Positions 4,561 to 27,870 of a stretch of DNA of 64,000 nucleotides are shown one piece after another (the first letter of the stretch is position 1; each line of letters opens with the position of its first letter). The notes beneath the pieces are model-generated. The model did no database searches. It was given only the letters and a program-made list of their open reading frames with translations, and had not been told where the DNA came from. This stretch comes from Escherichia coli (lineage in GTDB: Bacteria; Pseudomonadota; Gammaproteobacteria; Enterobacterales; Enterobacteriaceae): the NCBI RefSeq assembly GCF_002854065.1, contig NZ_CP024147.1, one strand, 5' to 3'. The position numbers and the translations under genes are program-made.

Positions 4561-7191
4561 TTATTGCAATTTCGCGCTGACCCAGCCTTTCACACTGGCT
4601 AACGCTGCAGGTAAGGCCGCAGCATCCGTACCACCGGCTTGCGCCATGTCAGGACGTCCACCCCCCTTGCCGCCCACCTGCTGAGCGACCATACCAATCA
4701 GTTCCCCTGCTTTCACACGATCTGTGACGTCCTTAGATACGCCTGCAATCAGAGAAACCTTACCTTCGGCTACCGTTGCCAGCACGATAATTGTCGACCC
4801 CAGCTGATTTTTTAAATCGTCAACCATGGTACGCAACATTTTCGGCTCAACACCGCTAAGCTCGCTAACCAACAGCTTAACACCATTAACATCAATTGCC
4901 TTACTGGAAAGATTTGCGCTCTCCTGTGCGGCAGCTTGTTCTTTAAGCTGTTGTAGTTCTTTTTCTAACTGACGCGTACGTTCCAGTACTGAGCGCACTT
5001 TATCAGCCAGATTATTGCTATCGCCTTTCAGCAGATGCGCGACTTCGCTTAAGCGATCGCTGTCTGCATGAACGGTGGCGATAGCGCCTTCTCCGGTTAC
5101 CGCTTCGATACGACGAACGCCTGCAGCAGTACCCGATTCAGAGATGATGCGGAACAGACCAATATCACCAGTGCGGCTGGCGTGAGTACCGCCACACAGC
5201 TCGGTGGAGAAATCGCCCATGCTCAGCACGCGTACGCGCTCATCATACTTCTCGCCGAACAGCGCCATCGCACCTTTCGCTTTCGCCGCTTCGAGATCCA
5301 TGATGTTGGTTTCGATCGGCAAATTGCGACGAATCTGTGCGTTCACCAGGTCTTCGACCGCACGAATCTCTTCTGGTTTCATCGCTTCGTTGTGTGAGAA
5401 GTCGAAGCGCAGCACCTTGTCGTTAACCAGTGAACCTTTCTGCGATACATGAGTACCCAGAACCTGGCGCAGCGCAGCGTGCATCAGGTGCGTTGCGGAG
5501 TGATTCAGACGAATACGGGCGCGACGAGCCTCATCAACATCAGCCTGCACCGCGTCGCCCACTTTCAGAGAACCCGCAGCAAGTTTACCGATGTGACCAA
5601 TCGCCTGGCCGTATTTCTGCGTATCTTCCACCGCAAAGGAGAAGTTAGCGCCTTTCAGTTCGCCTTTATCGCCAACCTGACCGCCGGATTCCGCATAGAA
5701 TGGCGTTTGATCCAGCACGACCACAGCTTCCTGGCCTGCATTGATGGCATCAACCGCTTTACCATCAACAAACAGCGCAGTCACTTTGCCGTTCAGTTCC
5801 AGATGGTCATAACCTTTAAATTCAGATGCACTGTCAACACGGATCATTGCGTTGTAATCGGCACCAAAGCCGCTGGCTTCGCGCGCGCGACGACGCTGCT
5901 CTTCCATTGCAGCTTCAAAACCAGCTTCGTCAACTTTGATGTTGCGCTCACGACAAACATCAGCCGTCAGGTCAACCGGGAAGCCATAGGTGTCGTACAG
6001 ACGGAAAGCAGTTTCACCATCCAGCGTATCACCAGAAAGTTTTGCCAGCTCTTCATCCAGCAACGCCAGACCGCGCTCCAGAGTACGAGCAAACTGCTCT
6101 TCTTCAGTCTTCAGCACCTGCTCAACCTGCGCCTGCTGGCGTTTCAGGTCTTCACCCGCAGAGCCCATAACGTCGATCAGCGGACCAACCAGTTTGTAGA
6201 AGAAGGTTTCTTTCGCGCCGAGCATATTACCGTGACGCACTGCGCGACGAATGATACGACGCAGTACATAACCACGGTTTTCATTGGACGGCATTACGCC
6301 ATCCGCGATCAGGAACGCACAAGAACGAATGTGGTCAGCGATTACGCGCAGCGATTTATTGCTCAGATCGGTTGCGCCAGTAACTTTCGCTACCGCCTGG
6401 ATCAACGTGCGGAACAGGTCGATGTCATAGTTAGAGTTAACGTGTTGCAGCACCGCAGCAATACGCTCCAGACCCATACCGGTATCTACAGACGGCTTCG
6501 GCAGCGGTTCCATCGTGCCATCGGCCTGGCGGTTGAACTGCATGAAGACGATGTTCCAGATCTCAATGTAGCGGTCGCCGTCTTCTTCCGGACTTCCCGG
6601 AGGGCCACCCCAAATGTGGTCGCCGTGATCGTAGAAGATTTCGGTGCACGGGCCGCACGGACCAGTGTCACCCATCTGCCAGAAGTTGTCAGATGCGTAT
6701 GGCGCACCTTTGTTATCGCCGATGCGAATAATACGTTCGCGCGGGATCCCGACTTCTTTTTCCCAGATTTCGTAGGCTTCGTCGTCGCTTTCATAGACGG
6801 TAACCCACAGACGCTCTTTCGGCAGGGCAAACCATTTTTCGCTGGTCAGCAGTTCCCATGCAAACTGAATGGCATCGTGTTTGAAATAGTCGCCGAAGCT
6901 GAAGTTGCCCAGCATTTCGAAGAAGGTATGGTGACGCGCGGTGTAACCGACGTTTTCCAGGTCGTTGTGTTTACCACCCGCACGCACGCAGCGTTGGGAA
7001 GTGGTAGCGCGGGAATAATTACGCTTGTCGAGCCCAAGGAACACATCCTTGAACTGGTTCATCCCGGCGTTGGTAAACAACAAAGTTGGGTCGTTATGGG
7101 GTACCAGGGAGCTGCTGGCAACTACCTGATGTCCCTTACTATGGAAAAAGTCGAGAAACGCCTGACGGATCTCAGCGGTGCTCTTGCTCAT
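4561..7191 (-). CDS. alaS: Alanine--tRNA ligase
   Basis: 876-aa ORF, N-terminus [24 protein letters not shown]. Confidence 0.97.
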
Positions 7192-7318
7192 AATTATCCT
7201 GAAATCAAGCTAACGAAATATCGCCACCAGCTCCAGCGTGTCTTAACCGCCGGGCTGGTAACTGAAAAGTGGGAATAAGATAAGTTTTCTTGACTGGGAA
7301 GTAAAATACCGTATGCGT

Positions 7319-7819
7319 TCAGTCGGCAAAATTTCGCCAAATATCCTGGATATCTTCCATCAGATAGCCACGATAGAGCAGAAAACGCTGGATCTTAACT
7401 TTTTCTGAAAAGACAGTTGGCAAAGGTTCACCATATTTTCGCGTCGCCTGATCGCGCGCCAGTGCGCACCAGTCGATGTCACATTCACGCATCGCTTTTT
7501 CTGTCGCTTCGCGGGAAATACCTTTCTGATTCAGTTCCTGGCGAATACGCGCAGGTCCATAACCTTTGCGGCTACGGCTGGCGATAAAGCGCGCAACAAA
7601 TCGGCTGTCATCGAGATAGCCATGTTCATGGCACCAGGCAATAACGCGCTCGTAATCTTCTGCCGTAGCATCAATCTCTTCTGGGCCATTTTTGCCCATA
7701 ATCGGTGCCGCGAGTTTACGTCGCAGTTCTTGCTCACTGTGATCGCGCACCGCCAGAATGCGTACCGCACGATCCAACAGGCGAGCATATGCCGGGCGAC
7801 GGGACGTTGATTCTGTCAT
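7319..7819 (-). CDS. recX: RecA inhibitor RecX
   Basis: 166-aa [39 protein letters not shown] immediately downstream of recA. Confidence 0.95.
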
Positions 7820-7837
7820 GGCATATCCTTACAACTT

Positions 7838-7867
7838 AAAAAAGCAAAAGGGCCGCAGATGCGACCC
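7838..7867 (-). terminator. Rho-independent terminator between recA and recX
   Basis: GGGTCGCATCTGCGGCCC stem followed by TTTTGCTTTTTT on the transcribed strand. Confidence 0.7.
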
Positions 7868-7980
7868 AAGTTTTGCTGATAAACAGATTTAATAGTCAAT
7901 GAGTGTGCAGAATGTTCCCGCAGGCCCAATTCGTTAGAGGATCGAGGTGAGAGTAATTTTTCACGCCAGTGCTGGCCTGT

Positions 7981-8034
7981 ACCCCTCCCCCTCCCCCTCA
8001 CCCTAACCCTCTCCCCAAAGGGGCGAGGGGACCG
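7981..8034. repeat. C-rich (plus strand) / G-tract (recA-sense strand) hairpin-forming element in the recA 3' flank
   Basis: acccctccccctccccctcaccctaaccctctccccaaaggggcgagggga; on the recA strand four or more G-runs and an imperfect CCTCGCCCC/GGGGAGAGG inverted repeat. Confidence 0.6.
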
Positions 8035-8073
8035 TCCGTGCACACATTATCTATTATCATCAATAACGAACGA

Positions 8074-9214
<1,141 letters not shown>

Positions 9215-9712
9215 TCAAGTGTTTTGTAGAAATTGTTGCCACAAGGTCTGCAATGCATACGCAGTAGCCTGACGACGCACCGCATCACGGTCGCCGCTGA
9301 AGCATTCCCTCCGGGTAATGCCTTCACCGCGGGCAGTGGCAAAAGCAAACCAGACGGTGCCGACAGGCTTCTCTTCACTGCCGCCATCCGGCCCGGCGAT
9401 ACCACTAATAGACACGGCATAATCAGCACGAGCCGCTTTCAGTGCACCTATCGCCATTTCCACCACGACGGGTTCGCTCACCGCGCCATGCTGCGCCAGC
9501 GTCTCTTCGCGTACGCCGATCATTTGCGCTTTGGCTTCGTTACTGTAGGTGACAAATCCGCGTTCAAACCAGGCGGAACTGCCGGCAATATCGGTAATCA
9601 CTTTCGCTACCCAACCGCCGGTACAAGACTCAGCAGTTGTTACGGTTGCGCCACGGGCTTTCAGCGCCTGCCCAACCTGTTCGCTTAACTGCATCAGTTC
9701 ACTGTCAGTCAT
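9215..9712 (-). CDS. pncC: NMN amidohydrolase (CinA-like C-terminal domain)
   Basis: 165-aa ORF MTDSELMQLSEQVGQALKARGATV. Confidence 0.9.
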   Translation of the reverse strand: MTDSELMQLSEQVGQALKARGATVTTAESCTGGWVAKVITDIAGSSAWFERGFVTYSNEAKAQMIGVREETLAQHGAVSEPVVVEMAIGALKAARADYAVSISGIAGPDGGSEEKPVGTVWFAFATARGEGITRRECFSGDRDAVRRQATAYALQTLWQQFLQNT

Positions 9713-13889: not shown

Positions 13890-13952
13890 CGGAGATCCGT
13901 TAAGGATCTCCGTGAGACTAATAGAATGCCTGATGCGCTACGCTCATCAGGC
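13890..13952. repeat. Two perfect/near-perfect stem-loops in the srlD-gutM spacer (CGGAGATCCgttaaGGATCTCCG; REP-like GCCTGATGcgctacgcTCATCAGGC)
   Basis: Inverted repeats read directly from the sequence. Confidence 0.7.
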
Positions 13953-13987
13953 ATACAGGACTTCCGCCACTACATTAAGGAAAAGTT

Positions 13988-20412: not shown

Positions 20413-20539
<127 letters not shown>

Positions 20540-27782: not shown

Positions 27783-27870
27783 GCAACCGTGCCGGATGCG
27801 GCGTGAACGCCTTATCCGGCCTACATAGTTCGTGCGACATGTAGGCCCGATAAGCGCAGCGCATCGGGCA
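27783..27870. repeat. REP/BIME palindromic repeats downstream of ascB
   Basis: gtgccggatgcggcgtgaacgccttatccggcctac and gtaggcccgataagcgcagcgcatcgggca. Confidence 0.85.

Follow-up and report, generated by a model that had tools for sequence, protein, structure and literature searches.

A BoxC-type (PIT/TMECO/HPG1) repeat in the recA-recX spacer of Escherichia coli

The spacer between recA and recX in the Escherichia coli genome analyzed here contains an extra segment of 186 bp which, judging from its sequence, is one copy of BoxC (also called PIT, for potential intrastrand triplex, TMECO, or HPG1), a long-known G-rich repeat of the species. The family, and even its presence at the recA-recX locus, were already known. 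The insert is probably a passenger repeat whose effect, if any, is modest, its neutrality being what we infer. The review of Bachellier et al. from 1999 and the works of Hoyne et al. from 2000 and 2002 are further sources on BoxC and PIT elements.

The window, i.e., the whole stretch of 64,000 nucleotides that was analyzed, contains the following features around the spacer.

4561-7191, minus strand: alaS
7319-7819, minus strand: recX coding sequence, 166 aa (list of ORFs; recX annotation in matching E. coli records)
7820-7837, minus strand: recX leader and ribosome-binding region, the same as in the K-12-type allele (comparison of filled and empty spacers)
7838-7867, minus strand: recA intrinsic terminator, with its stem at 7850-7867 followed by a T-run, unaltered by the insertion
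7868-8053, minus strand: insert of 186 bp, absent from the empty allele of K-12/BL21 type (alignment with BL21), a putative composite BoxC/TMECO inverted pair
7915-7956, plus strand: decayed type-B BoxC arm, with the family consensus at 31 of 44 positions and 5 mismatches in the 21-nt purine core
7965-7976, no strand: central small palindrome GCCAGTGCTGGC, between the arms and common to most other paired copies
7982-7993, minus strand: 12-bp hexamer expansion (two extra GAGGGG in the recA sense), part of the period-6 array 7982-8015
7994-8029, minus strand: intact BoxC/PIT/TMECO unit of type "A mm", CCCTCGCCCCTTTGGGGAGAGGGTTAGGGTGAGGGG
8054-8073, minus strand: short remnant of the spacer next to recA, together with the outer arm of the repeat (recA sense: TCGTTCGTTATTGATGATAA)
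8074-9135, minus strand: recA coding sequence, 353 aa (list of ORFs; recA annotation in matching records)

The recA stop codon (TAA) occupies 8074-8076 on the minus strand, and the gap between the two genes (7820-8073) measures 254 bp, exactly as stated in the initial annotation. The latter gave a K-12 spacer of about 70-76 bp, which is close to the actual 68 bp of MG1655 (recX at 2822139-2822639 and recA at 2822708-2823769), and its estimate of about 185 extra bp became 186 bp upon alignment to the empty allele of BL21. The recA terminator, consisting of GGGTCGCATCTGCGGCCC and a T-run, is conserved across the spacers of Enterobacteriaceae and still adjoins recX, where it had been placed. It is the sole terminator-like site that we found in a scan of 7700-8200, i.e., there is no additional intrinsic terminator in this interval. 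A scan of the same interval for sigma-70 promoters found none, hence no new promoter for recX, and the covariance models of Rfam 15 gave zero matches in 7000-9500 at E <= 1. Inspection by eye revealed no LexA-box-like CTG-N10-CAG in the insert. Two ORFs extend across it, one of 75 aa on the minus strand (7816-8043) and one of 55 aa on the plus strand (7969-8136). We judged both to be non-coding because they run through the terminator or into recA and have Arg/Gly- or Pro-rich repeat translations. The GC skew of the plus strand is mostly negative across the window (1-64000, cumulative value of -0.23), consistent with the minus strand being the leading one and with recA, recX, and alaS being co-oriented with replication.

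Family and anatomy of the insert

The assignment to BoxC follows from the intact unit. On the minus strand, positions 7994-8029 match the K-12 TMECO numbers 7, 11, and 15 ("type A mm") at 36 out of 36 positions (Table 1 of PMC4666352), and they contain the motif GGGAGAGGGTTAGGGTGAGGG described as HPG1 (PMC5100583). The core motif had 0 matches in 100 shuffles of the window. The unit shows the three blocks that define BoxC: a pyrimidine block CCCTCNCCC(C), a short loop, a purine block GGGGAGAGGG, another loop, and a last purine block GGGTGAGGG(G). Type A has TTA in the loop that precedes the last purine block, and type B has CCG or TCG. The term TMECO means triplex motif of E. coli, and its authors equate it with two earlier names, BoxC from the 1990s and the PIT of Hoyne and Maher (PMC4666352). 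The arrangement of A and B units in inverted pairs has been described by Holder et al. 2015 (PMC4666352) and by Kaplan et al. 2016 (PMC5100583). Consensus oligonucleotides analyzed in vitro by CD and NMR adopted an intrastrand triplex, a G-quadruplex, or a hairpin (PMC4666352, PMC5100583). The initial description of the segment, i.e., G-quadruplex-capable runs and an inverted repeat, is in agreement with these in-vitro studies, which concern the same sequence. The G-run quoted in that description lies exactly at 7982-8016 on the minus strand, i.e., in the recA sense.

The core is multi-copy, in line with what is known of the family. When the insert was searched with blastn in 5426 complete genomes of E. 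coli, it matched a median of 13 places per genome (up to 23), the core matches having more than 90% identity. The full 186-bp segment is single-copy, and only about 110-170 bp of it have diverged relatives (73-78% identity) elsewhere. The 64-kb window has one copy of the BoxC core. The proposal that the segment could be a miniature repeat element thus holds, as the multi-copy core and the 36/36 match confirm, but the module is not a new one, since this is BoxC/PIT/TMECO/HPG1.

Even this particular copy is catalogued. Entry 91 in Supplementary Table S8 of Holder et al. (NC_009801 2983331-2983296) falls inside the recA-recX spacer of strain E24377A, where recX ends at 2983133 and the recA coding sequence starts at 2983376. 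None of the names recA, recX, and oraA was found in the Holder supplements, and the locus was identified through its coordinates. The accessible text of the BoxC/TMECO literature names neither the recA-recX location of this copy nor its position in the recA 3'UTR. Kaplan et al. 2016 (PMC5100583) list loci of K-12 only, and K-12 lacks an HPG at recA-recX.

The insert is strictly intergenic, as are the elements of the BoxC family: it follows the recA stop codon and precedes the terminator. Its palindromic unit may extend over 7873-8063, with inverted-repeat arms at 7890-7919 and 8027-8056 (70% complementary) and outer arms at 7873-7882 and 8054-8063 (90%). The flanking inverted repeats quoted in the initial annotation were found at 7905-7914 and 8038-8048, inside longer imperfect arms, and they are the outer part of the overall palindrome of the BoxC pair. 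The insert aligns over about 115-170 bp with the paired BoxC units at yggN-yggL, ygfF-gcvP, and alx-sstT and with the K-12 pairs at hrpB-mrcB and fepB-entC, and the matches at yggN-yggL, ygfF-gcvP, and alx-sstT were of about 110-125 bp at 73-78% identity. Its architecture and spacing align with those of these five paired loci, although the B arm retains no more than about 70% identity to the consensus. This arm (7915-7956) was missed by a motif search allowing up to 3 mismatches. Among the five changes that the B arm has undergone in the arm blocks, three are C-to-U when read as RNA and would preserve G-U pairing. We did not count them as a sign of selection, because the events are too few and transition bias alone would be expected to produce them.

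Compared with the BoxC/PIT/TMECO elements described previously, the insert has the identical 36-nt three-block unit, an intergenic location, multiple copies, a putative inverted A+B arrangement, and a presence that varies between strains. It differs from them in the decay of its type-B arm to about 70% identity and in its two extra GAGGGG hexamers. With the HPG1/HPG2 "G-quadruplex-hairpin-duplex switch" it shares the exact HPG1, a complementary C-rich block upstream, and the pairing with an HPG2-like motif of the other strand that is also seen at ygfF-gcvP, alx-sstT, and hrpB-mrcB, but this HPG2-like partner is degenerate and there are extra G-tracts.

The junctions are less simple. The comparison of filled and empty alleles revealed no clear direct repeat that would represent a target-site duplication, and the end sequences of the insert resemble those found at other copies of BoxC. 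The stretch 8054-8073 resembles the ancestral 20-nt TCGTCTTGTTTGATACA(C/T)AA, with a similarity of about 75%, the boundary between element and flank being uncertain. These 20 nt beside the insert differ by about 25% from the empty allele, whereas the flanking genes differ by at most 1%, so that the junctions are not entirely accounted for by simple insertion into the empty sequence as it is today. We considered the flanks as a "long diverged duplication" and as a "terminal inverted repeat", and the comparison of the junctions left both readings weak. The insert resembles MITEs such as ERIC/IRU in being about 190 bp long, in having candidate terminal inverted repeats, which are imperfect, in its predicted folding into a hairpin overall, and in being transcribed within a UTR, but it differs from them in that it has neither a target-site duplication nor sequence similarity to ERIC.

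Distribution and length alleles

The insert is present at recA-recX in 1634 of the 5426 complete E. coli genomes (about 30%), at one place in each and never on plasmids (0 cases). The matches at this locus include Shiga toxin-producing strains (STEC) of serotypes O26, O103, O111, and O121. The locus is empty in K-12, BL21, and O157:H7. The initial annotation had named a 254-bp spacer identical in K-12 and most E. coli as the observation that would speak against it; K-12 and about 70% of the genomes lack the insert. Such presence/absence polymorphism, together with small indels (here alleles of +6 and +12 bp), is typical of BoxC.

The filled alleles would stem from a single insertion event, as the junctions and the decay of the B arm are identical in five strains (S3, E24377A, 100416, XJ34, and Escherichia sp. 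E1V33). The filled allele also occurs in two other Escherichia lineages, one of them represented by record L008 and the other by Escherichia sp. MOD1-EC7003 (L010), which carries a decayed remnant. For this distribution to arise, the polymorphism must be old or the allele must have been transferred by recombination. The short, empty state is probably the ancestral one, because spacers of 66-70 bp are the commonest state (about half of 79 species of Enterobacteriaceae) and because TCGTCTTGTTTGATACACAA is common to K-12, E. whittamii, and the first (5') part of the E. albertii spacer. The number of TMECOs per genome depends on the strain, and we take those with 25-30 to be of phylogroup B1 and those with 1-2 to be of phylogroup B2. 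The Holder supplement gives 23 for K-12, 10-11 for O157, 25-30 for some strains, and 1-2 for others, and strain-to-strain variation is greater at TMECO loci than at controls (PMC4666352).

The only unusual detail of the allele in the window is its 12-bp expansion. The common allele, ending in GGGTGAGGGG, is carried by about 1617 of the 1634 filled genomes and has a spacer of 242 bp, whereas the window reads GGGTGAGGGGGAGGGGGAGGGG, and Tandem Repeats Finder (TRF) reports 5.7 copies of a period of 6 at 7982-8015. The expansion is absent from S3, E24377A, and E1V33. It was found in 2 of the 1634 filled genomes (2 of 5426 overall), those of strains 100416, from the Gambia, and CUWW06, from Thailand. 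An allele of +6 bp is present in two other genomes (XJ34 and XJ6-3) and consists of a duplication of TGAGGG, unlike the GAGGGG expansion of the window. Variation in length is restricted to the hexamer tract (+12, n=2; +6, n=2). G-rich hexamers are prone to replication slippage, which we infer to be the cause of the rare +12 allele, and the independent +6 allele of XJ34 (record L088) points to recurrent slippage in the tract. The window also has a private base beside the G-run, at 7981 (A on the plus strand), where all other filled alleles examined, including both +12 genomes, have T.

Other repeats in the same slot

In other Enterobacteriaceae, various repeats occupy the slot that follows the recA stop codon and precedes the terminator. 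Spacers exceed 100 bp in about 20 of the 79 species, and the terminator beside recX is kept in every long spacer examined. The recA-recX spacer of Escherichia sp. MOD1-EC7003 (L010) spans 1022 bp and contains 5.1 tandem units of 169 bp (597-1471, 94% matches), each made of a terminator-like hairpin and a REP pair, and preceded at 479-596 by the decayed remnant of the BoxC insert. The 238-bp spacer of E. albertii (L012, 1263-1500) has a long-linker REP pair and, upstream, a degenerate duplicate of the terminator stem, GGGACGTATCTGCGAC. It also has TTTGTCAGCAAAACCT just before the real terminator, resembling the end of the BoxC insert of E. coli. ERIC-like elements lie between recA stop and terminator in Silvania confinis (a full one, L024, 1306-1500) and in a Citrobacter, and records L065 and L070 (1352-1500) have the short form. 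We assume that these elements are ERIC on the basis of the ERIC2 primer sequence. Finally, Kluyvera sichuanensis (L037, 1349-1500) has a REP-like element between recA stop and terminator.

The insert shares with BIME-1 and REP pairs its nature of small palindromic intergenic repeat and its placement between stop codon and terminator, REP pairs being the occupants of this very slot in E. albertii and MOD1-EC7003. It differs from them in its core sequence, and it lacks the REP consensus (GCCGGATGCGGCG... / GCCTGATGCG...GGCCTAC), for which we found no match in 7820-8073 at up to 2-3 mismatches and several elsewhere in the window. To our knowledge, no REP-associated transposase has been linked to BoxC. 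The window's own REP/BIME elements (13928-13956, 20434-20515, and 27791-27869) are a single REP and short-linker pairs. At yggN-yggL, 65 of the 5426 E. coli genomes have an intact A+B pair of BoxC where K-12 has a REP pair. The spacers compared (L004, 165-400, and L007, 145-379, versus L094, 165-347) showed that the two alleles share the bounds GATTGATAACAAA ... TTTGTCATCG. Similar end motifs were seen in the BoxC pairs at ygfF-gcvP and recA-recX and in the long-linker REP pairs of MOD1-EC7003 and E. albertii. Insertions of boxC at or near BIME loci were reportedly described by Bachellier et al. in 1997 (Genetics 145:551).

One may ask whether the slot between recA stop and terminator is a recurrent landing pad where BoxC and long-linker BIME-1 cassettes are interchangeable through common ends (GATTGYTRACAA ... 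TTTGTCATC). We regard this as rather improbable. The end motif GATRACAAA / TTTGTCATC is not found at any of the three REP elements of the window, so that the idea of a shared motif concerns few loci only. If true, it would imply a shared mechanism of mobilization or replacement for BoxC and REP cassettes, and lineage-specific structures in the recA 3'UTR that shift the stability of recA or the read-through into recX.

The insert in the recA transcript

In the scenario that we favor, a BoxC pair would have inserted a single time, in an old lineage of Escherichia, into the 20 nt that separate the recA stop codon from the terminator, and would now segregate as a presence/absence polymorphism. Lying upstream of the terminator, the insert would belong to the 3'UTR of the recA transcript and also to the longer RNA that reads through into recX. 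In the RNA, the insert is predicted to fold as a whole into a single long and imperfect hairpin, leaving the hairpin of the terminator and the recX leader unaltered. The predicted fold of the spacer has an energy of -90.2 kcal/mol, versus -73.9 +/- 4.6 kcal/mol for shuffled sequences (z = -3.55), with the terminator hairpin intact downstream, and the fold predicted for the DNA is weaker (z = -2.8). A G-quadruplex-aware fold, using a crude model, places a free quadruplex at the tip of the hairpin in the +12 allele and not in the common one.

Previous works have shown that recA and recX are co-transcribed and that the expression of recX depends on read-through of the recA terminator (PMC3542578, PMC9252578), which amounts to about 10% in K-12 (PMC3542578). 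The initial annotation suggested that the segment may affect this read-through. We found no support for such an effect: the terminator and the recX leader are identical between filled and empty alleles, and these elements had neither promoter nor terminator activity when tested previously (PMC4666352). The insert does bring AGCAAAA up against the 5' side of the terminator stem, and the predicted pairing of this stretch with UUUUGCU of the T-run could alter the efficiency of termination.

The main alternative to a passenger repeat is that the insert works as a 3'UTR module, in which the hairpin, an RNA G-quadruplex, or the A-rich stretch alters the stability of the recA mRNA or the read-through, and hence the ratio of RecA to RecX. 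The position of the insert in the transcript, the dependence of recX on read-through (PMC3542578, PMC9252578), the strong predicted hairpin (z = -3.55), the AGCAAAA/UUUUGCU pairing that would lengthen the terminator helix in the filled allele only, and the free G-quadruplex that the crude energy model gives to the +12 allele are all compatible with such a role, and terminator-like roles inside operons have been proposed for HPG motifs (PMC5100583). However, PIT elements had shown neither promoter nor terminator activity in earlier tests and had not affected RNA polymerase (summarized in PMC4666352), the type-B arm is in decay, and the insert is missing from 70% of E. coli. The presence of unrelated repeats (REP pairs and ERIC-like elements) in the same slot of other genera further suggests that the site is tolerant. 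Taken together, these observations make a functional module unlikely.

A second alternative places the effect at the level of DNA: the G-rich strand, by forming a triplex, a G-quadruplex, or a hairpin, would be a hotspot of slippage, deletion, and recombination, and the resulting variability would be its adaptive function. Holder et al. proposed instability of this kind for TMECO loci, around which they observed more variability than at controls (PMC4666352). In line with this, the length variants at recA-recX lie exactly within the hexamer tract, the flank beside the insert is unusually diverged, and the slot is rearranged in MOD1-EC7003 (5.1 tandem units of 169 bp) and in E. albertii (REP pair and duplicated terminator stem). 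The negative GC skew of the plus strand also fits with the G-rich strand being the lagging-strand template, as we presume it to be. Yet, about 1617 of the 1634 filled genomes have the same length, i.e., the locus is fairly stable, and DMS footprinting found no stable triplex in vivo (PMC4666352). Moreover, instability as a mere side effect fits equally well with a passenger repeat, and we consider an adaptive role of this type very unlikely. As for the unusual G-run being an artefact of assembly or sequencing, homopolymer-rich hexamer repeats are error-prone and a private base lies directly beside it (7981), but the same +12 allele in two independent complete genomes (from the Gambia and Thailand) and the common allele in more than 1600 others leave this explanation a negligible chance.

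With the insert best regarded as a passenger repeat, what looked like a striking G-quadruplex-capable module beside a key repair gene would be a catalogued selfish or neutral repeat that brings little new biology. It does mean that K-12 is unrepresentative of E. coli for the recA-recX transcript. In about 30% of the strains, including many non-O157 STEC and E24377A, the recA 3'UTR would be longer by 174-186 nt and contain a strong predicted hairpin, which is relevant for the design of recA/recX probes, reporters, and 3'-end mapping. Since recX needs read-through of the terminator, this natural polymorphism would provide a ready-made test of the effect of BoxC on transcription.
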